From IMG/VR virus record IMGVR_UViG_3300008255_000286, positions 1 through 34,879 of that record: a stretch of DNA of 34,879 nt. One strand, written 5' to 3'. This DNA is from a virus (lineage: Duplodnaviria; Caudoviricetes). Both the position numbers and the translations under genes were made by a program. Positions 7,716-34,006 of this stretch are shown piece after piece (positions within the stretch are counted from its first letter, which is position 1; each line of letters starts with the position of its first letter). The notes under the pieces are model-generated. The model was not told where the DNA came from and ran no database searches. It saw only the letters and a program-made list of their open reading frames with translations.

Positions 7716-8819
7716 TCATTGCTTCTTTGCTTCTTCGAATAATGATTTCTGCTTCGGTTTCTTTTTCTCTTCTCGTTCTGCAGCCTTGCGAACGCGCTCT
7801 TCTTCTCGTTGCTTCTTTGCTTCTTCTCTAGCTGCTTTCTTTTGAAGTCTTTCTTCTTCTCTTGCTTTCTTCGCTTCTTCTCTTTCTATTTTTCGCTGAG
7901 CTCTTGCTTCAACTTCTTTTTCTCGTTCGATGCGACGAATTTCTTTTTCTTCCGCTCTTTTCAGTTTCTCCTGTTCAGCCAACGAGTAGCTAGCCCATTC
8001 TTTTGAGTGTTCTGGCCAGATTGTCTGTAGAATTCTCATGATGGGGGCGTAGATTTGAGTATCCCAATAATATCGTCTGTCCCACGTACCGTCATAATCA
8101 TCGACATGCACAGCAGTCTGTTTTGGAACTGAAGCAGAGATGATGTAATCTATTCTAGTCCCCCAAGCATCTGCTTCTTCGCTCGGCTGTAGAATCAATC
8201 CCTTCTCGACCATTTGCTCAGCTAAGATAACGTGGGCAGATTTTGAAGCATATTTGTATGTCGGCTTCGACAACCTAGTACTGATGATGAGGTCTTCTTT
8301 TGAAACAGAAGTTTTCTCATCAAAAACTGTCTCTCTTAATTTGTTGAGCCATTCTACTATATGGTCTTTCCCCTTGTCTTCGTATGTGACCATCTTGGAC
8401 AAGTCTCTCATAGCTCTCTTTGTGATGCCAATTGTGTTTTTCTTTGCGTCTTCCAAGCCTTTGGAGAAAATCATGTCCGTCTTCTGACCATTCAACCACA
8501 TCATCGTTCCAGTGTATCGTTTCTTGTCGACCATAATCATCTTCCTGTACGCTTTCTCGTATTCTAGATGCACGATGTTTGTCGTCAGATGAAACTTCTC
8601 ATTCAGGAATTTGACTAATTTAGGATTCACAATGTCGTCGTTCAGCTTGTCGATGTCTTCATGAGTGCCGGGTAGCGGCACAAAAATGCTATCAGTATTG
8701 TGAACGATGATGTCATTTGCTAAAAATGCTTGAGTGCTGGGCACTTCAAAATCATACACGTATTGACCAGTATTCTGTATCTTTCTGATGCTAACAATTT
8801 TTTCTCTTTTTAATGACAT
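7716..8819 (-). CDS. polB: Family B DNA polymerase, C-terminal subunit, preceded by a split-intein C fragment
   Basis: First 41 aa end VYDFEV..FLANDIIVHN, followed by TDSIFV (second half of motif C), KKRY and KGLE. Confidence 0.9.
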   Translation of the reverse strand: MSLKREKIVSIRKIQNTGQYVYDFEVPSTQAFLANDIIVHNTDSIFVPLPGTHEDIDKLNDDIVNPKLVKFLNEKFHLTTNIVHLEYEKAYRKMIMVDKKRYTGTMMWLNGQKTDMIFSKGLEDAKKNTIGITKRAMRDLSKMVTYEDKGKDHIVEWLNKLRETVFDEKTSVSKEDLIISTRLSKPTYKYASKSAHVILAEQMVEKGLILQPSEEADAWGTRIDYIISASVPKQTAVHVDDYDGTWDRRYYWDTQIYAPIMRILQTIWPEHSKEWASYSLAEQEKLKRAEEKEIRRIEREKEVEARAQRKIEREEAKKAREEERLQKKAAREEAKKQREEERVRKAAEREEKKKPKQKSLFEEAKKQ

Positions 8820-9718
8820 ATCTTTTGCAATTTTTTAATGACATTGTCTATATCTGTGTAGATTTCATGTTCAGTGAAACGTAGCACCGTCCATCCACGC
8901 TTCTTGAGCAATGCATTCTGTCTAGCGTCTACTTCTAAATTATGCAATTGCGTAGTATTCAGTTTTTTCATAGCTTTTCCTGCGACTGGATGCCAATACT
9001 CACCATCACAAAAGATAGCAATTTTTTTGTCTAGTATGATAAAGTCGGGTGTGCAATATCGCTCAATACTGTGTTGTCGCATATAATGTATTTTTGTTTT
9101 TTTCAGAGCTGCTTCGAAGTAACGCTCGAGTGCGGTTTCTTTTTTTCCGAATTTTTGTTTCAATCGGGTTACTCTAACTTTTTGACGTGACTCTTCTACA
9201 TTGTAGTACTCTCTCAATCCCACTGCAGCCATGTTAGCACGAGTCGCTACTCTAGCATCTGAATTTTTAGTTAATCCAGTACACCAGGGTTTACTATTTT
9301 TCTTAAATGCAGTAGATGGTGTTGTTTTCTTACGTTTTGTTTTACAATACAATAAATCAGTTTTCATATTTATCATTGCCGGCTGTACGACTATGTTCTT
9401 TCCGTTGCGATTCACGATCATTGAATGGTCTTTTGTGACTACTACTTTTTTGCCCGACTCAGTAGTAATCTCGTATAGCTCTTTTGTAGTCCAATGACGA
9501 ATCATTTTACTAACGTGCTGTTTCTTTTCTATATTTCTATCTGTGAGCACTGCTTTTTTAGATAGCATCGAATACGTTTGAGCATGCGGCATGTGTATAT
9601 CAAAATCAACAATATCTTTAGTGCCTCTTTTCACAGCTCTCACTTCAAATTTTTTCCAAAGTTCGTCGAATGTTAAAAGTCTATCGTTAAATCTAATTTT
9701 TGTAGAGCCCACTACGCT
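8697..9718 (-). mobile_element. Naturally split intein in PolB motif C (Int-N + Vsr-like nuclease 9718-8810; Int-C 8819-8697)
   Basis: YGD|SVVGST...VTKDHS (blocks A/B), then PDFII..CDGEYWH..GWTVLRF and a stop; the next ORF supplies blocks F/G ..VHN|TDS. Confidence 0.88.
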
Positions 9719-12700
9719 ATCGCCATAAATTACTTTTTGAGAACTCACTTTTTCAAAGATGCTCGACACCGCTTTGTTCAAAAATTGTCCAGTTATCGTG
9801 ATTGACTCTGCTACGTTTTTGTCGAAGTATCTAGATGTTCTGTCGCCCGTTATCCCGTACATGCTGTTGTGGCTGAGAGTGCATCCGATAAAAAAATTAT
9901 GATTTTTTTCAACTTCGATATCATACACATCTCCAGAATATTCGAAGTTGCCTATATTGCGAATAGAGTCTAGCGTGTATGCTTTGTCTGATGAGTACGT
10001 CATGATACTAGAAGCAACATTCAAATTCATCAACATTCGATATGACACGTTGCAATTGTCATTAGCCGGGGGTGCTGTTGTGATCTCGACGGGTCGTTCA
10101 TAAACGTATCTTAAAAGATCAGAGATCTGATACACTAACTGTTTTGATACAGTCGTGCATCTGATATAGTTATCTCTGTGTTTTGAGTTTCCGTCACCGT
10201 CTGCATAGCCCTTTATAAAGCTAGCAATTTCTTTTTTAGATTGAGAAAAAATCCAACGTGGGACACTCTTTGTCGTAGCATTGAATTCAGTTTGTGAAGT
10301 ATAGCACTCTTTTGAGAAAAACTCCCCAATCAATGCATTTAAGATAGCACACCCGACTGCATTATTTTTGATTCTCGTTTCATGTAAGCCTACTTCAACA
10401 AATGTTCTTTTAACTCTATCAGTATAGTGTGTGTTCGTGTTTGACACGACAATACCACCAGTTGTCTGTCCCTTCGAGTTCTTTTTTATTCCGCCGCTGC
10501 CCTCTGCTACATACATGCCAAACACCCATAATAGATTATCTGTTATTCGCCATGCTAGCGGAACTCTATGCCCGTTATCACTCAAACTAATGCGAAGTTC
10601 ATACTCGATGACTTCTTCAAGAGTCAATGCTTTTACCGCATCCCACAGTTTGTCATCCAGCTCAATCATGTGGTGATACCTGTTATTTGACTGTTTACTT
10701 TGTTTGTGTCTATTGACGTATCTTGACTGCACAAGTTCATTAAATGCAGCACTGGATGTTTGTACGAGATCTTGATTGCGATATTTTTTTTGTGCGCATG
10801 ACAGATGCAGCATAGGTGTCGATACAGATTTTAATACTGAATAGTCGTGCTTACGCAAATCTAAGTATTCTGCTTGTGCTTGAGTGTACGTAGTAGATGC
10901 AAGATTGACTAGCAGATCGAATTGTTGTAAGTCGCAAGCAGTCTTTTTTCGTAATTCAAGAATACTCAATTGTGTTAATTGCATATGAGAATTTGATAAG
11001 ATGCTCTTTTGATTTCGATTCTTTCTGTATGCGGGATTCACAAATGACGTAGCAAACAAACGATGTTCAGGTGTGCATAAAATCTGTAACGAATGCGCAG
11101 GCTTAATTGCTATTAAATGCTGAGACGATGTCTTCCAGATTTTGCTAATGCGCTGCCACTCGACAGCGTCGTTCTTAAAATTATACGACTGTATCTCGTA
11201 TTGTTTATTTGAATCGTGAATTTCTTTAACTGACATAGCACGGTAGATGTCTGCATCGACATCATGCACGTACAGTGTCGTGCTCGGATGTAAACAATTT
11301 GCTAACTCTTTCACGATTGCTTGAGAAGAACGAGTACTCCCGTACTCTGGAGACCCCGGCTTCAGACCCTCTAACTTCTTCTTCATCTCACCACGCAACT
11401 CAAGCAATTCTTCGACTAAGCTGGAGATGAATGAATCTACAGCTGTCCTGAAGAAGTTATTGTTAGCAGTCTGCCAACACTCATTCTTCGGGTCTATTCT
11501 TTTCTTTTGCTTCATAAGGAAATTGTACCACTCGTTGAAGTCGACGTCTTCTATCTTTCTGTCAGGGTCTGTAAGGAACTTTCTGAATTCAACATCTCCC
11601 AACTTTGATTTTTCACGGTCCATCGAGTCAGGACCGATATTCCAACTCACAATCATTGATGGATACAGCGACTTGAAGTCGAAGATTCGAACATCTGTGT
11701 AGAGTCCAGTTATCGGTGGCTTCACGTACCCGCCTATGATATGCACAACTTTGTTAGCTTCTGCTTCTTCGTACGTGGGTCGTGAATAGAGATATTGCTT
11801 GAGGTCTTTCGACTTTCTAAGCATGTAGTTGTCAAGAAGTTCTCCTACGTAGAATCTGTCGAGAGTTGTTCCAGTCCACTTGCATTCGTTTATCATCAGC
11901 TGGATGATGCCGAGCTTCGCATCTAGCTTCATGAGAAGTTCAGAGTCTTTGCGGTTGTATTTTTCCAACAACTCTCTGTTGTTATCATACATCTCTTTGA
12001 TTCCCTCTTCGTGCTTCACTTTCTCTTCACCCAAGAAGACTCTAGCGACCTCGTTGAGTGCGAAACCCGTCAATCCGATTTTGTCCATCTCGTATGTGTA
12101 GAGCTTGATACAGCGTTTCATCAAATCGAGATGAATTCGTCTTCTCCAGTCGTACTTCAATCCGTACTTCTCCATTCTGCTCTGGATATACGGGAGGTCG
12201 AATTTCTGTGAGTTCCAACCGACGAAAATGTCGTGTTTGTCTATCAATCGAATCAGCCGTTGAAGCAATGCTTTTTCATCTTCTACGTCGTAATACCAGC
12301 TCTTTCCGCGGTTGTTGTATGCTGCCCATGAGAGGATTCGGTCTCTCCCAATCTTTATTCCTGCTCCGCTGGAGTCGTCAGTTTCGATGTCGAAATAGAG
12401 AATGTTCAAATCTTCTGCTATGGGCACCTTGTTGTCAACAAGATAACGTTTCGTTCGTGAGAGGTCTGACTCGTACGTGACGACACCGAGTTTTTTCAGA
12501 CCACATACAATTTTAGACACTAACGGATTCTTCGACGTGTATTTACAATAGATGAGAGTGTAGTCGCCTTTCTCAACGAACTTTTCTATCGTGCCAGCAT
12601 TCACAGATTTTCCGAACCTCTTCTCTCCTCCCAACTTGTTGAAGTCCACCGTCTTGACTGTAAAATACCAGGGCTTGTCTTTCAGACGTCGTTCAAGAGT

Positions 12701-12790
12701 CTCATGTCCCTTCTTCAGGATTAGCACGATATCAGACCAGTCGTCCCAGCCAGTTAGCACTTTGTATTTTGTGTCAGTGTCTTTTGCCAT
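8810..12790 (-). CDS. polB: Family B DNA polymerase, N-terminal subunit (3'-5' exonuclease + palm) with a cis intein and a split-intein N fragment
   Basis: Motifs FDIET, GWNSQKFD, YNRKD, DFKSLYPS, KELAN|SMYG and YGD|. Confidence 0.93.
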   Translation of the reverse strand: MAKDTDTKYKVLTGWDDWSDIVLILKKGHETLERRLKDKPWYFTVKTVDFNKLGGEKRFGKSVNAGTIEKFVEKGDYTLIYCKYTSKNPLVSKIVCGLKKLGVVTYESDLSRTKRYLVDNKVPIAEDLNILYFDIETDDSSGAGIKIGRDRILSWAAYNNRGKSWYYDVEDEKALLQRLIRLIDKHDIFVGWNSQKFDLPYIQSRMEKYGLKYDWRRRIHLDLMKRCIKLYTYEMDKIGLTGFALNEVARVFLGEEKVKHEEGIKEMYDNNRELLEKYNRKDSELLMKLDAKLGIIQLMINECKWTGTTLDRFYVGELLDNYMLRKSKDLKQYLYSRPTYEEAEANKVVHIIGGYVKPPITGLYTDVRIFDFKSLYPSMIVSWNIGPDSMDREKSKLGDVEFRKFLTDPDRKIEDVDFNEWYNFLMKQKKRIDPKNECWQTANNNFFRTAVDSFISSLVEELLELRGEMKKKLEGLKPGSPEYGSTRSSQAIVKELANCLHPSTTLYVHDVDADIYRAMSVKEIHDSNKQYEIQSYNFKNDAVEWQRISKIWKTSSQHLIAIKPAHSLQILCTPEHRLFATSFVNPAYRKNRNQKSILSNSHMQLTQLSILELRKKTACDLQQFDLLVNLASTTYTQAQAEYLDLRKHDYSVLKSVSTPMLHLSCAQKKYRNQDLVQTSSAAFNELVQSRYVNRHKQSKQSNNRYHHMIELDDKLWDAVKALTLEEVIEYELRISLSDNGHRVPLAWRITDNLLWVFGMYVAEGSGGIKKNSKGQTTGGIVVSNTNTHYTDRVKRTFVEVGLHETRIKNNAVGCAILNALIGEFFSKECYTSQTEFNATTKSVPRWIFSQSKKEIASFIKGYADGDGNSKHRDNYIRCTTVSKQLVYQISDLLRYVYERPVEITTAPPANDNCNVSYRMLMNLNVASSIMTYSSDKAYTLDSIRNIGNFEYSGDVYDIEVEKNHNFFIGCTLSHNSMYGITGDRTSRYFDKNVAESITITGQFLNKAVSSIFEKVSSQKVIYGDSVVGSTKIRFNDRLLTFDELWKKFEVRAVKRGTKDIVDFDIHMPHAQTYSMLSKKAVLTDRNIEKKQHVSKMIRHWTTKELYEITTESGKKVVVTKDHSMIVNRNGKNIVVQPAMINMKTDLLYCKTKRKKTTPSTAFKKNSKPWCTGLTKNSDARVATRANMAAVGLREYYNVEESRQKVRVTRLKQKFGKKETALERYFEAALKKTKIHYMRQHSIERYCTPDFIILDKKIAIFCDGEYWHPVAGKAMKKLNTTQLHNLEVDARQNALLKKRGWTVLRFTEHEIYTDIDNVIKKLQKICH
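9866..11296 (-). mobile_element. Cis intein (477 aa) with LAGLIDADG endonuclease in PolB motif B
   Basis: Starts CLHPST after KELAN and ends HNFFIGCTLSHN before SMYG; internal GMYVAEGS and GYADGDG. Confidence 0.9.
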
Positions 12791-23024: not shown

Positions 23025-23477
23025 ATGTTAAAAAAGAGTAAGATTGAAGAAAAATATGTTGCTCTCGATGCGCCGCATCAGGAGTATATCCGCATCTATC
23101 ATGCCTACTTTGTTCTGCAATGGGAGATGTATGAAATTTGTGAGCATTTTCAATGCAGTCAGTCTAAGGTGTCTGTTGCGATCCGTTGGGTGATTGAGAA
23201 TAAGGGCAAATTCCCTCCAGAGTATCTTGTCGATGGTGCTATTTACGCTGTCCGCGAGCGTCTGAAGCAGAATAGACTTCTTCTCGATGACGAGCTTAAG
23301 AAGACAAAAGTCCAGGATAAGCGATTCATTATCGAGCTCAACAACCAGATTCGCTTTGACGAAGATCGATTATTTAAGCTTCAGCAAATTACTACTAGTA
23401 AGCCAGGTGAGGATGAAGCAATTCGCGCATCGGATGTGCTGAAATTGATTGCGAGTGCTCAAAAACAATCACTATAA
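23025..23477 (+). CDS. Putative terminase small subunit
   Basis: N-terminal HTH (EICEHFQCSQSKVSVAI), helical remainder, directly upstream of TerL. Confidence 0.6.
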   Translation: MLKKSKIEEKYVALDAPHQEYIRIYHAYFVLQWEMYEICEHFQCSQSKVSVAIRWVIENKGKFPPEYLVDGAIYAVRERLKQNRLLLDDELKKTKVQDKRFIIELNNQIRFDEDRLFKLQQITTSKPGEDEAIRASDVLKLIASAQKQSL

Positions 23478-23544
23478 CATATTATACTATACTATTCTAT
23501 ATTTGTACAATATTTATTGTTATAGTATATAGTATACTTGTATT

Positions 23545-26049
23545 ATGAGTGATGATCTAATTGCTCCCTTTTCGACTGAAGAAATCAAAACGATTACACG
23601 AGCGTCAGGTGACTTCGTGTATTTTGTGAATGCTATTTTTTCGAAGAGCTCTAGACATTTTATAGCTGGCGAGCACGTCGACAACACCGCTAGACTGCTG
23701 GGTTCGAATAAACGGACAATGAGAGTCTCAGCACGTAATCATTTCAAGAGCTACTCTTTCTATGCACACATCATGTGGAAGATTATGTTCGAGCTTCCGC
23801 AGAAAAACGTCGAAGCCCACTACTTCTCTTTCAGCCAGGACTTGGCTGGCTATCATGTCGGAAAAATAAAGCAAGCGGTCGCATCAAACCCGTATTTCAG
23901 ACATCTTCGAGATAGAAAACCAACTGCTGAATCAGTCATAAAATACACATGGGACGATGTCACGCATTATTCTCTGGAGCCTCACGGCCTTGTGCAGTTC
24001 AAACGAGGTATTCACTGTGATTATGTATATGTAGACGACCCGTTCCAAGACCCAGAAAATCAATTGAATCCGACAATCATTAAGAAAATCAATGAGATTT
24101 TTAAGTCGAACATTCTTGACATGCCGAATGAACCTGACGGCGAATTGCATTGTGCAGGTACGCCGCAGACAGATGAAGACTTCTATTTCAACAAAGACGT
24201 TACTCGACGATTTTCAGTACGTATTCTTCCAGCTATCTCTGATGACGGCAAAGCACTATGGCCCGAATGGATGGACCTCCCAGAACTCGAACAAAAACGA
24301 ATTGAGCGAACAGACCGCATTTTCAGACGAGAGTATCTCTGTACTCCAGTTTATTCTACTGAAGGCTTCTTCACGAGAGAGTATCTGACTAGAAAAGTAG
24401 TCAATCACGACCTCGTCCCTCATAAAGCAAGTCTCAAATACGCAAAGCAGGGGGAAGTTATCGCTGGATTCGACATCGGAAAGAAATCTCACCCTTCGCA
24501 CTTGACAGTGCTAGAGCACAGGCCGAATCAGAAGCTCGTTATGATTCACCAGAAGTGGATGGACGGCTGGTCTTACTCAAACGGAAAAGACTTCTTGGAA
24601 TTCGCTCCCACTCAGCTGGAGTATCTAAAGAAAGTAATAAACAACTTTGGCATCGATCGTCTCTATTACGACAACACACGAGGTGAATTCGAGTCATTCG
24701 ACGAGCAAGGTCTGCTTCCAAGACAGATGATTCCAATCGTGTTCAACCAAAAGTTGAAACAGACGATGGCTACTGCATTCGACAAAGTCGTTGAACGATC
24801 TCAAATAGAAATCATCAACGACGATCGTCTGCTGACTCAAATTTGTGCAGTCACAAATTCCCTAGAAGCTATTCAGTCTTCTAAGGGTCATGGTGACTGT
24901 TATGACGATCAAACAGAAGTACTGACAAGAGTAGGCTGGAAACTTTTCAAAGATGTGCTATATACTGATGAGATAGCTACGCTAAAAGAAGATCGTTTCA
25001 TTGAATATCAGAAACCCACCAACATTATCAACAAACAGTACTCTGGAAAGATGTATAAAATTGCAACAACTCAAGTTGATCTCGTTGTTACTCCGTTGCA
25101 TAAAATGTATGTTAGCGATGGATATGAAAAACCATATTTGTTGAAACAGCCACACGAGATCGAAGGGAAAATTATTTCATACAAGAAGAATGCAGAATGG
25201 CTTGGACGGGAAAAAGATGTTTTTGAATTCTATGAACATCATATCCCAATGGACATCTTTCTTGAATTTATTGGATACTATGTATCAGAAGGATTCACTT
25301 TGAAAGGAAAGTATATCTGTATTTCACAAAAGCAGGGAGCGAAAGCAGATCGAATGTTTTCTTCATTACGACAGTTGCCTTTCAACGTCAAACAAGCACA
25401 CAAAAATAATTATGATGGCAGCACATATTTCTTTTCTGCAAAATTATCTAGATGGTGCGATGAAAATCTTGGGCATGGGTCATCGAATAAAAAACTGCCA
25501 GAGTGGGTATTTGCGCTGTCAAGCAGACAATTGACTATTCTGCACGATGCATTAGTGTTAGGTGACGGCTCTAGAAAACAGTTAAAGAATGGTCAAACGC
25601 AGACGAGCTATAGCACAACTTCAAAATTGTTAGCAGACCAAGTCCAACGCTTGTGTTTTTTAAGAGGGCTCAGTGCGAATGTATATTGGTCTGATGACAA
25701 TATCGGTAGACCCGCACCAAATGGATTTGGGCGACATCGAACATACGCGATAATGACTATTGCTCAGAAAAATAGACCCGCTGTCAACAAAAAACGAAAA
25801 TCAGATTACTGGATAGATTACTCGGGTTCTATTCATTGTGTCACCGTGCCCAATCATATCATCTATGTCAGAAGAAATGGAAAACCCGTTTGGAGTGGGA
25901 ATTCGTTCTGGTCTGTGTGTCTTGCACTGTTGGGCATTGCAGAACTTACGAACTACGTGGAAGAGGGGACTGCGACTAATCGAAAGAGAATACGAGCAGG
26001 CGGAAAATCTATTTTTTCGGATGATTCTCCAATTCCGTCCGGATATTAA
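23545..26049 (+). CDS. terL: Terminase large subunit (intein-containing)
   Basis: Walker A variant ARNHFKS, RGIHCDYVYVDDP, AGTP, LWPE, FRREY, AGFDIG and HGD|SFWS. Confidence 0.88.
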   Translation: MSDDLIAPFSTEEIKTITRASGDFVYFVNAIFSKSSRHFIAGEHVDNTARLLGSNKRTMRVSARNHFKSYSFYAHIMWKIMFELPQKNVEAHYFSFSQDLAGYHVGKIKQAVASNPYFRHLRDRKPTAESVIKYTWDDVTHYSLEPHGLVQFKRGIHCDYVYVDDPFQDPENQLNPTIIKKINEIFKSNILDMPNEPDGELHCAGTPQTDEDFYFNKDVTRRFSVRILPAISDDGKALWPEWMDLPELEQKRIERTDRIFRREYLCTPVYSTEGFFTREYLTRKVVNHDLVPHKASLKYAKQGEVIAGFDIGKKSHPSHLTVLEHRPNQKLVMIHQKWMDGWSYSNGKDFLEFAPTQLEYLKKVINNFGIDRLYYDNTRGEFESFDEQGLLPRQMIPIVFNQKLKQTMATAFDKVVERSQIEIINDDRLLTQICAVTNSLEAIQSSKGHGDCYDDQTEVLTRVGWKLFKDVLYTDEIATLKEDRFIEYQKPTNIINKQYSGKMYKIATTQVDLVVTPLHKMYVSDGYEKPYLLKQPHEIEGKIISYKKNAEWLGREKDVFEFYEHHIPMDIFLEFIGYYVSEGFTLKGKYICISQKQGAKADRMFSSLRQLPFNVKQAHKNNYDGSTYFFSAKLSRWCDENLGHGSSNKKLPEWVFALSSRQLTILHDALVLGDGSRKQLKNGQTQTSYSTTSKLLADQVQRLCFLRGLSANVYWSDDNIGRPAPNGFGRHRTYAIMTIAQKNRPAVNKKRKSDYWIDYSGSIHCVTVPNHIIYVRRNGKPVWSGNSFWSVCLALLGIAELTNYVEEGTATNRKRIRAGGKSIFSDDSPIPSGY
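24898..25902 (+). mobile_element. Intein (335 aa) with LAGLIDADG endonuclease in the TerL nuclease domain
   Basis: CYDDQTEVLT..GW, VTPLHKM, GYYVSEG, LVLGDG, HCVTVPNH..WSGN|S. Confidence 0.9.
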
Positions 26050-32468: not shown

Positions 32469-33090
32469 AAGTGGGTTATGTCCACTATTCTGCCCGAAGG
32501 CAGAAGACTGTACACAACTGCTCTTCTCTTTTATTCTCACTTCTAGACGTCGCAGCACTTCTCGTCACGAAAGTATGCTAAGCTGTCTGGTGAGTTTCGC
32601 TCACCCCTCTGCTCGAAAGCAGAGGGCTATTCGAAACTCAGCGTAGGTTGGCTTTTCTTTTCTCAACCTGGCGTATCTCTACCACGCGCAACTTAACCGT
32701 TTTGGTGAGTTCTGCTCACCTCTCTAGCCGAAGCCAGAGAGCTATTCAGAACATTTCTTCATTTCGCGCGGCGTAGCGATTCGTAGCTTTTCTTCGCTAA
32801 ACAGGATTGGTGAGTTCTGCCCACCCTTCTAGCCGAAGCCAGAAGGCTACTCAGAACTCTACGACTCTCCACAAAACGTCGATGTACCGCTACGTTGCAA
32901 GTCTACTCTAAACTCATTAGTGGGTTTTGCCCACTCCTCTGGCCGAAGCTAGAAGACTGATCGAAACGCCACGAAACTTCTGTTCACGTCTTCACTCGAT
33001 ACTAGTCTACTCGCCATTCTACGTCAGTAGGCAGTCTTGGTGAACTATACTGTCCACCAGTTTGCTCCCTCTCTCGAAGGAGCAACGTTG
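32469..33090 (-). ncRNA. Putative guide-RNA array (VIPR-like): five units of pentamer tract + double hairpin, plus a leader hairpin unit
   Basis: Conserved hairpin cores begin at 32469, 32588, 32703, 32808, 32918 and 33038. The tracts between them have C at position 2 in 65 of 74 plus-strand pentamers (my count). UUCG loops and G-U pairs indicate minus-strand RNA. Confidence 0.85.
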
Positions 33091-33097
33091 GTAGGCA

Positions 33098-33376
33098 CTA
33101 TGGCCTGCTGGCTTTCCTTATCTTCTTTTGTACCGCTTCTTTGAGCAAGCGCTGAGTGTTCCTATACCCGAACATTCGTACTGCGCTGAGCTTCGTTTTT
33201 GCGGTGTTGATGTGAAGGTTCCCGAAGCCGATAACTAATCGTTGCTTCTTGATGTCTTCTTCTGTGTAGGGCTCTTTCTTCAACGACTCCGCTCTATTGA
33301 TTGAAGCGTCGAAGAGTCCATTTGTGCGTCCTACGTCCATCACTGCGTCTACATCTGAGATACTTTTTTCGCTCAT
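33098..33376 (-). CDS. Hypothetical 92-aa protein between the RAMP-like gene and the array
   Basis: Starts 4 nt after the RAMP-like gene's stop; its own stop is directly followed by the array. Confidence 0.65.
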   Translation of the reverse strand: MSEKSISDVDAVMDVGRTNGLFDASINRAESLKKEPYTEEDIKKQRLVIGFGNLHINTAKTKLSAVRMFGYRNTQRLLKEAVQKKIRKASRP

Positions 33377-33380
33377 AATG

Positions 33381-33929
33381 TTATTTTACATCTGTGAACT
33401 CTACTAATTCGAATCGACCGAATCGAGGCCTGTATGACCCGATACCTTTGTGCAATCCAGCATACTCAATGATTTGTTTTATCACATCCAAGTCTGCTCT
33501 GTCGTCCAGAACATCCATGTTGAATGATAAACTCCACTCGTTGAGTCTTGGTCTATAGCACATCATTCTTCCACGAGTAGAAGGATTGACTGCTGCTCTA
33601 GCATCTACAATCCATTCTTGATTTTCGTGAGTAAGATACTCTTCGTCTATAAAGCAAGCGCTTTGAACGATTTCTTTATATGACTTCTTACCCGACCCAG
33701 CCAATTTGAACTCAGTGGCTGACTTTGCGAATGCCATCTCAAGATGTATTGAAGGTTGCTTGAGAACGCCTTTTTCGTCCGTATACAAGTATTGGCTCGC
33801 AATCTCTCTTTGCGCTTCAGGAGTCTGCGCTTTATCACCAGCCCGCTTGTTCGTCTTCAAAAGTTTCTCTTCGCTAAACTTATGCATCAGGAGAGGAGCA
33901 ATTCCTCTAATCTTTACATGTACTTTCAT
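33381..33929 (-). CDS. Stand-alone minimal RAMP/Cas7-like RNA-binding protein (Vipr-like)
   Basis: N-terminal beta1 VKIRGIAPLLMH, QPSIHL helix cap, RPR..W.LSF strand, and C-terminal Gly-rich loop AGLHKGIGSYRPRFGRFEL; adjacent to the array. Confidence 0.75.
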   Translation of the reverse strand: MKVHVKIRGIAPLLMHKFSEEKLLKTNKRAGDKAQTPEAQREIASQYLYTDEKGVLKQPSIHLEMAFAKSATEFKLAGSGKKSYKEIVQSACFIDEEYLTHENQEWIVDARAAVNPSTRGRMMCYRPRLNEWSLSFNMDVLDDRADLDVIKQIIEYAGLHKGIGSYRPRFGRFELVEFTDVK

Positions 33930-33977
33930 AACGATGGGTTATTTGTCTTCTAATAATGTCAATGTTCGACCTTTTAT

Positions 33978-34006
33978 ATTATACCATATCCTTCCACATT
34001 TGTAAA
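33978..34006 (-). promoter_or_regulatory. Sigma70-type promoter for the RAMP-like operon
   Basis: TTTACA-N17-TATAAT (TGgTATAAT), 48 nt upstream of the ATG at 33929. Confidence 0.75.

Follow-up and report, generated by a model that had tools for sequence, protein, structure and literature searches.

A two-gene locus and an array on a tailed-phage contig

The window, meaning the whole stretch of DNA analysed here, is an entire virus record of 34,879 bases. Pfam and family searches identified genes for a terminase large subunit, a PolB with an intein, a primase-helicase, a ligase, a thymidylate synthase and a peptide deformylase. From these genes we take the contig to be part of a tailed phage, one with a bacterial-type promoter motif; the terminase large subunit, PolB, primase-helicase and ligase provide the viral context typical of VIPR. 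VIPR is an RNA-guided gene silencer related to CRISPR, with a first description in 2026. It is defined by a Vipr protein, an accessory gene and guides of 9–16 pentamers followed by a structured 3′ tail; its targets are read by a one-base skip rule, and types I–VII are delimited by the phylogeny of Vipr together with array architecture and vap family (10.64898/2026.04.26.720920). The locus studied here comprises the following features:

33978..34006, minus strand: sigma-70-type promoter with an extended −10 (TTTACA-17-TATAAT, 11 of 12 consensus matches)
33381..33929, minus strand: vipr gene, 182-aa RAMP-fold protein by sequence and predicted-structure matches
33098..33376, minus strand: accessory gene where vap would lie, coding for a 92-aa protein predicted to be all-helical; it follows vipr immediately in clade relatives
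about 33040..33097, minus strand: tract-less leader hairpin ahead of unit 1 (fold z −4.4)
32919..33043, minus strand: predicted vrRNA 1, 16–17 pentamers, then tail 32957–32919
32809..32918, minus strand: predicted vrRNA 2, about 13–14 pentamers with a one-base register slip, then tail 32847–32809
32704..32808, minus strand: predicted vrRNA 3, 13 pentamers, then tail 32742–32704
32589..32703, minus strand: predicted vrRNA 4, 15 pentamers, then tail 32627–32589
32469..32588, minus strand: predicted vrRNA 5, 16 pentamers, then tail 32508–32469

The original prediction had placed one promoter at 33978–34006 ahead of ORFs of 182 and 92 aa, with no cas1, cas2, cas3, cas5 or cas6 in the window. Promoter and both ORFs, at 33381–33929(−) and 33098–33376(−), were borne out, and the 30 contig ORFs scanned against Pfam gave no match to the Cas1, Cas2, Cas3, Cas5 or Cas6 families; one contig nuclease had a sub-threshold Cas4-like Pfam match. 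The layout is minimal, with vipr and an accessory gene and, across the 30 ORFs scanned, neither a cas operon nor a CRISPR array.

The promoter (34006–33978, minus strand) is one of eight contig copies of a single phage promoter motif and is therefore not specific to this locus. All copies lie on the minus strand (34006, 30591, 29680, 27124, 23509, 17366, 6687 and 1460), combine a TTTACA-type −35 with an extended −10 and stand ahead of minus-strand gene blocks; some genes begin a few bases from such a promoter and may be leaderless. Promoter-like pieces also occur on other contigs of DNA runs X1 and X7. A period-5 signal at 23471–23540 was considered as a guide and rejected, being an AT-rich copy of the promoter. 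A Shine-Dalgarno-like word precedes only 1 of 30 gene starts examined on the contig, suggesting a host lineage in which Shine-Dalgarno use is sparse. The contig also carries PolB with an intein and endonuclease domains, in two ORFs, and a terminase with a LAGLIDADG-like insert (7716–12790 (−) and 23545–26049 (+)), as well as several free Vsr, DUF559 and NUMOD3 endonuclease genes.

The 182-aa protein is a Vipr homologue

The 182-aa protein was matched to the Vipr of Escherichia phage SUSP1 by phmmer (chain 36pp_D, E 2.6e-8) and by hhalign (99.8%), and a profile of 37 homologues returned SUSP1 Vipr as its sole PDB match (E 1.4e-30, positions 1–179). The PDB sequence search also gave Kelch matches, which we discounted because they stem from a short repeated segment. 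The original prediction, which recognized a Cas7-like protein and identified the locus as VIPR, had proposed structure prediction and Foldseek as a check on the fold. An AF2 model reached a pLDDT of 91, and its best Foldseek matches were Cas7/Csm3 subunits (E 1e-7, TM about 0.6). Together with the SUSP1 match, this predicted fold upholds the identification: judged from sequence and model, the protein is a stand-alone RAMP homologue with an RRM core, a thumb and a G-loop, and the product of 33381–33929(−) is, by its sequence, a Vipr protein. The family comprises 4040 representatives at E ≤ 0.001. No recognizable nuclease domain was found in the vipr or the accessory gene product.

Alignment to SUSP1 Vipr places H16, R126 and R167 at the positions of H17, R138 and R179 and retains the equivalents of G87–K88, while S165 stands in place of D177, Y166 in place of W178, K in place of C173 and T in place of K82. 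The change at D177 had escaped the original prediction, as had the departure of the scaffold from GGY. Residue 175 of SUSP1 Vipr (L195) is given as T175 in the structure preprint and as Val in the PDB chain and the GenBank translation.

The accessory protein is predicted to be all-helical with a basic C-terminus. Its family consists of eight database proteins, the window's own included, and the gene directly follows vipr in three relatives (L096, L097 and L161); a more distant homologue follows vipr in the GGY-type locus L156 (E 1.5e-9). It fell into no Pfam or PHROG family; Foldseek gave nothing at E ≤ 0.001, scores in the ESM Atlas all stayed under 0.9, tblastn found no match in isolated phages, and hhalign did not link it to SUSP1 vap1, the gene after vipr in that phage (E 0.38). 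That it serves as a nucleic-acid-binding helper is a guess.

The array consists of pentamer-periodic units with a loosened scaffold

The five tail copies are spaced by 119, 115, 105 and 110 nt, reproducing the first four intervals of the original prediction. Its fifth interval, 120 nt, stood in part: a sixth hairpin does fold ahead of unit 1 and is stable (z −4.4), but it has no tract and its likeness to the tails is marginal (P 0.04–0.17). This leader hairpin may be a sixth tail that has degenerated, or else a signal for 5′ processing.

Between the tails, the tracts have a pronounced period of five. At lags 5, 10, 15 and 20 the mean match was 0.357, against 0.258 ± 0.012 after shuffling, a value reached by none of 5000 shuffles, and four of the five tracts rank within the contig's five strongest period-5 windows. 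Anchored on the tail and read on the minus strand, each unit holds 13–17 tandem pentamers of a triplet plus NN, as expected of VIPR guides (about 9–16). The strings of 13–16 pentamers described earlier were thus real in period and nearly so in number, but had been read on the plus strand, whereas the minus strand is the correct one.

To describe the scaffold we tallied 67 in-phase pentamers, taken from four tracts in full and from unit 2 in its 3′ half. At position 1, A occurs in 33, C in 21, T in 9 and G in 4; position 2 is G in 54 of 67 and lacks it in 13; position 3 is G in only 2; and the information content of positions 4 and 5 is about 0.1 bit each. This gives a scaffold of (A/C)-G-(A/C/T) with two free bases after it. 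The ‘constant triplet’ of the original prediction therefore gives way to a single near-fixed base, the G of position 2, with G in 2 of 67 at position 3. Repeats other than YNNGG, namely NNNGG, YNNNG and NNNNG, are listed in the VIPR methods (10.64898/2026.04.26.720920), and of the published consensus forms the array fits NNNNG only (middle G 54/67). With a structured 3′ tail after each tract, the locus has every VIPR feature that can be checked from sequence, except canonical GGY.

We weighed whether the units might instead be structural or regulatory repeats, such as terminators, protein-binding sites or a CRISPR-like array with ordinary spacers, that lie beside a RAMP gene by chance. They do resemble repeat-spacer units; against this, the 5-nt period of the variable part is far beyond chance (0/5000 shuffles), nothing in Rfam came near threshold, a terminator scan stayed at background (3 against 2.3 expected) and no cas genes were found among the 30 ORFs scanned. 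The search for similar arrays beside homologues, suggested at the outset, called at least 10 pentamers in 99 of 102 dereplicated relative loci, so that periodic arrays recur beside relatives. We regard an origin as non-guide repeats as very improbable and treat the units as predicted guides.

Contigs from eight DNA runs showed no listed differences in the guides, with seven of the eight covering short pieces only. Among the relatives, L161 (550–680) carries two adjacent units with identical tail and tract end, the second with a short tract, which marks a recent duplication within the array. In L097, a tRNA-Gln gene (2084–2157) lies within the vrRNA array between units 2 and 3 and could be a processing site.

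Loss of the G-loop aspartate goes with loss of the first scaffold G

In SUSP1, H17 and D177 read G1, R138 and W178 read G2, and a narrow pocket holds Y3, while D177A abolishes silencing, according to the structure report (10.64898/2026.04.26.720927). To relate the G-loop residue to the first scaffold base, we fetched 183 loci of relatives, using two scans that took the best 80 of 178 and the best 80 of 128, and a locus search in which one pattern favoured Ser/Ala. Dereplication left 102 loci, in which pentamer runs were called near vipr; three without a called tract and four without a parsed motif were dropped, five Thr loci were set apart, and 90 remained, among them the window's own record (L095) as one of seven Ser/Ala loci. 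Among these 90 fetched and dereplicated loci, G1 was present in at least half of the pentamers in 83/83 with Asp or Glu and in 1/7 with Ser or Ala (Fisher P 1e-8, a value that ignores kinship). The Thr loci (L029, L063, L079, L087 and L092) were intermediate, with first-G frequencies of 0.41–0.84. Across the 150 best representatives of the family, the motif could be parsed in 115, of which 26 have Ser, Ala or Thr at this position.

On phylogenetic trees, from which L161 was left out as too short, the Ser/low-G state arose by three changes, in the window's own clade (support 100), in L159 and in L027; a single origin was not rejected (p-AU 0.078). Independent pairs, which fell short of phylogenetic significance, comprised two that changed the same way, none that changed oppositely and one unchanged. 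The last is L024 (2990–3520), an exception to the residue–base link with a very divergent Vipr on a long branch, which has Ser with a G1 frequency of 0.79 and is flanked by arrays of mostly GG-type repeats. Loss of the fixed G1 and loss of the G-loop Asp have likely co-evolved, which agrees with the SUSP1 structure, although the Ser/Ala loci amount to about three lineages. The text accessible to us of the literature that mentions vrRNA contained no statement of a link between Asp and G.

Of two distant Ser-type loci, L027 (3485–4152) has a near-fixed AGT scaffold, with A at position 1 in 51 of 55 pentamers, and long hairpin tails; in L159 (999–2016) the scaffold is (A/T)G, and its units, which are short and free of hairpin tails, lie on both sides of vipr.

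A further reading is that of a decaying system, in which a key residue was lost and a non-working array drifts away from GGY. The middle G missing from 13 of 67 pentamers, the register slip in unit 2, the inactivity of SUSP1 D177A as reported in 10.64898/2026.04.26.720927, and our failure to find targets would fit it. Yet the 21 closest proteins (51–100% identity) all have Ser (17) or Ala (4) at the D177 position with intact frames, and L096, L097 and L161 share one order of vipr, the same accessory gene and non-GGY periodic units with hairpin tails, so that array and accessory gene have both been retained. Moreover, G was replaced by A/C and not at random, and the tails carry compensatory changes. 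We therefore consider decay improbable and favour a probably functional system, although the loss of silencing in SUSP1 D177A weighs against a Ser165 protein that works normally.

The tail can adopt two mutually exclusive folds

Tail folds were derived from the five unit ends, paralogous copies that were aligned without gaps. Two folds share one UUCG-capped hairpin. In fold A, the last two pentamers pair with the loop and 3′ arm of the second hairpin, which lengthens the shared hairpin by six pairs; the double hairpin is fold B, and the two are mutually exclusive. In either fold pairing reaches about 96%, and two-sided changes affect 7 of 17 pairs (A) and 6 of 14 pairs (B), of which columns 9–46, 10–45 and 17–38 are unique to A and 38–54 and 42–50 unique to B. 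Covariation across five paralogous copies amounts to few events, and the shuffle controls ignore relatedness.

For naked RNA, computation gave fold A as dominant, with pair probabilities of 0.98–1.0. The double hairpin of the original prediction accordingly exists, as fold B, but is the less stable of the two once the tract end is included. Among the relatives, an A-like fold is favoured in L096 and L161 and a B-like fold in L097. We rejected a pseudoknot on geometry: the helices compete, and there would be no linker between columns 49 and 50. From these folds we infer that the tail is likely a switch that releases the last pentamers upon loading. Because fold A hides the last two pentamers, these two are likely structural and not free guide positions. 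Such a tail would offer a possible way to gate loading or processing.

Codon-like guides and the search for targets

When the NN dinucleotides are read as codon positions 1 and 2, four of the five tracts give plausible codon strings, and guides 1, 2 and 5 have no forced stop. The codon strings of guides 1 and 5 resemble a Walker B motif of an ATPase or helicase. Codon-like guides would fit an attack on replication genes in rival elements, the skip falling on the wobble base.

Target searches returned no convincing candidates. In the window's own contig the five guides matched at shuffle level under both two-letter and three-letter readings, and nothing convincing appeared at skips of 0–3 in this contig and 182 related loci (about 0.98 Mb). 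IMG/VR was searched with six exact gapped patterns of 18–24 specified bases that together covered all five guides. Four patterns had zero matches; one matched two loci, extending to 23/32; and one matched nine loci, eight of them identical at 25/32 and one at 20/32, with 18 positions forced. Both outcomes are at chance level, and extension of the 11 matches in total was no better than chance. A genome target search gave 0 of 5 genomes. Guides 1 and 5, with up to three mismatches, gave 0 of 401 Patescibacteria genomes, a result of little information because the host lineage was a guess. With no target found, the NN code and skip rule assumed here are taken from SUSP1 by analogy.

The freed first base allows another reading, in which position 1, released from the Asp pocket, is a copy of the skipped target base and may pair, so that each guide would spell an unbroken target in NNN plus G-H units. 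We compared NN plus the next position-1 base, read as codons, with within-guide shuffles in 23 guides from five Ser/Ala loci, and found it more protein-like (z 2.7, P 0.004–0.005). By set, P was 0.04 for the own locus, 0.06–0.09 for three clade loci and 0.03–0.05 for the unrelated L159, while three wrong-position controls gave 0.18–0.58 in the pooled set. The third letter turns the ambiguous acidic residues of guide 5 into D-E-A-D and each of the two possible stops of guide 3 into Tyr. These results hint that position 1 stores the ‘skipped’ target base as weak codon-like information.

Several points count against this three-letter reading. The codon statistic was picked after the idea, one wrong-position control reaches P 0.03–0.05 in the own set, and stop-free frames alone are not significant (14/16, P 0.14). 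Position 1 is strongly A/C-biased, whereas wobble bases are not, and in the Ser-type L027 it is fixed as A (51/55). As reported in 10.64898/2026.04.26.720927, the SUSP1 thumb flips out triplet and skipped base alike. We found no statement of a three-letter code in the accessible text of the literature mentioning vrRNA. On balance, a contiguous three-letter reading is possible but rather unlikely, and we favour guides that read two of every three bases.

Proposed mechanism

The locus is a VIPR system of a tailed phage, comprising Vipr, a small accessory protein and a set of five predicted guides that likely direct Vipr to silence genes of rival mobile DNA by reading two of every three target bases; a use against competing elements follows the SUSP1 papers. 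By analogy with SUSP1, one transcript from the promoter at 33978–34006 would be cut into RNAs of about 105–125 nt, each pentamer would be bound by one protomer with its triplet flipped out, and the NN pairs would bind double-stranded DNA with a one-base skip. Again as in SUSP1, binding would stop transcription; we propose no cutting because neither gene encodes a recognizable nuclease domain. The register may be held by the middle G, which R126, a conserved residue, and Y166 would read, together with the exclusion of G at position 3. The change from Asp to Ser would have lifted the need for G at position 1, which then drifted to A/C. In the naked RNA, the last two pentamers would be buried in a long hairpin, which gives way to the double hairpin once Vipr loads. 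Two further observations weigh against this scheme: the missing middle G (about a fifth of pentamers) and the slip in unit 2 fit some decay, and the first base may carry target information, for which a SUSP1-like model has no need.

Comparison with known systems

Class 1 CRISPR–Cas systems share with the locus the RAMP fold, thumb and G-loop of their Cas7/Csm3 backbone (Foldseek E 1e-7, TM about 0.6). They differ from it in having a cas operon and a repeat-spacer array with contiguous spacers, neither of which was found here, with 30 ORFs scanned; the present array has a period of five, stores its information in dinucleotides and lets each unit end, at its 3′ side, in the structured part.

With VIPR as published (10.64898/2026.04.26.720920), the locus shares a phage-borne two-gene layout, a Vipr RAMP homologue, the lack of cas genes, pentamer guides with a structured 3′ tail and a downstream array of about 110-nt units. 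In contrast to it, the scaffold is (A/C)-G-H and not GGY, Ser occupies the D177 position and guides reach up to 17 pentamers; there is no upstream vrRNA, a tract-less leader hairpin is present, and the accessory family is unlinked to SUSP1 vap1.

The closest comparison is the type II VIPR of SUSP1 (PDB 36pp; 10.64898/2026.04.26.720927; 10.64898/2026.10.15.759431), which has full-length Vipr homology to our protein at 24% identity, equivalents of H17, R138, R179 and G87–K88, and the same order of vipr, accessory gene and array. In the alignment, D177, W178, C173 and K82 of SUSP1 correspond to S, Y, K and T here; the tail is a two-state hairpin here and a pseudoknot in SUSP1; and hhalign shows no relation between vap1 and the accessory gene found here (E 0.38). 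The locus thus lacks the type II traits of GGY with a G-loop Asp (G1 in 4/67, Ser165) and of vap1 (E 0.38). By analogy, its working mode is most likely that of SUSP1.

Non-canonical VIPR arrays with WGT/NN, TGH/NN, GAC/NN and CAC/NN repeats are reported in 10.64898/2026.10.21.760802. As described there, they resemble ours in placing a Vipr-like protein beside a 5-nt-periodic, non-GGY triplet with one degenerate position, whereas two of three scaffold positions are degenerate here. The accessible text of that report does not tie the motif to a protein residue, and its Fig. S10 may include an (A/C)-G-H motif. Both VIPR and arrays with non-GGY repeats have been published before, and the system as such is not a discovery. 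What is added is a natural, testable link between residue and base, Asp with G and Ser/Ala with not-G, which predicts the scaffold from the protein and warns that GGY-based callers miss the clade of this locus; the compact 182-aa protein with a second scaffold could be of use for engineering. If the three-letter code were true, it would be a step from gapped towards contiguous recognition or, alternatively, a fossil record of guides written by copying target DNA, and a freed base that records the skipped base would give a handle on how vrRNAs are acquired. Set beside these systems, the locus is a member of the VIPR family, from a clade with a loosened scaffold, a matching protein change, its own accessory gene and a two-state tail.
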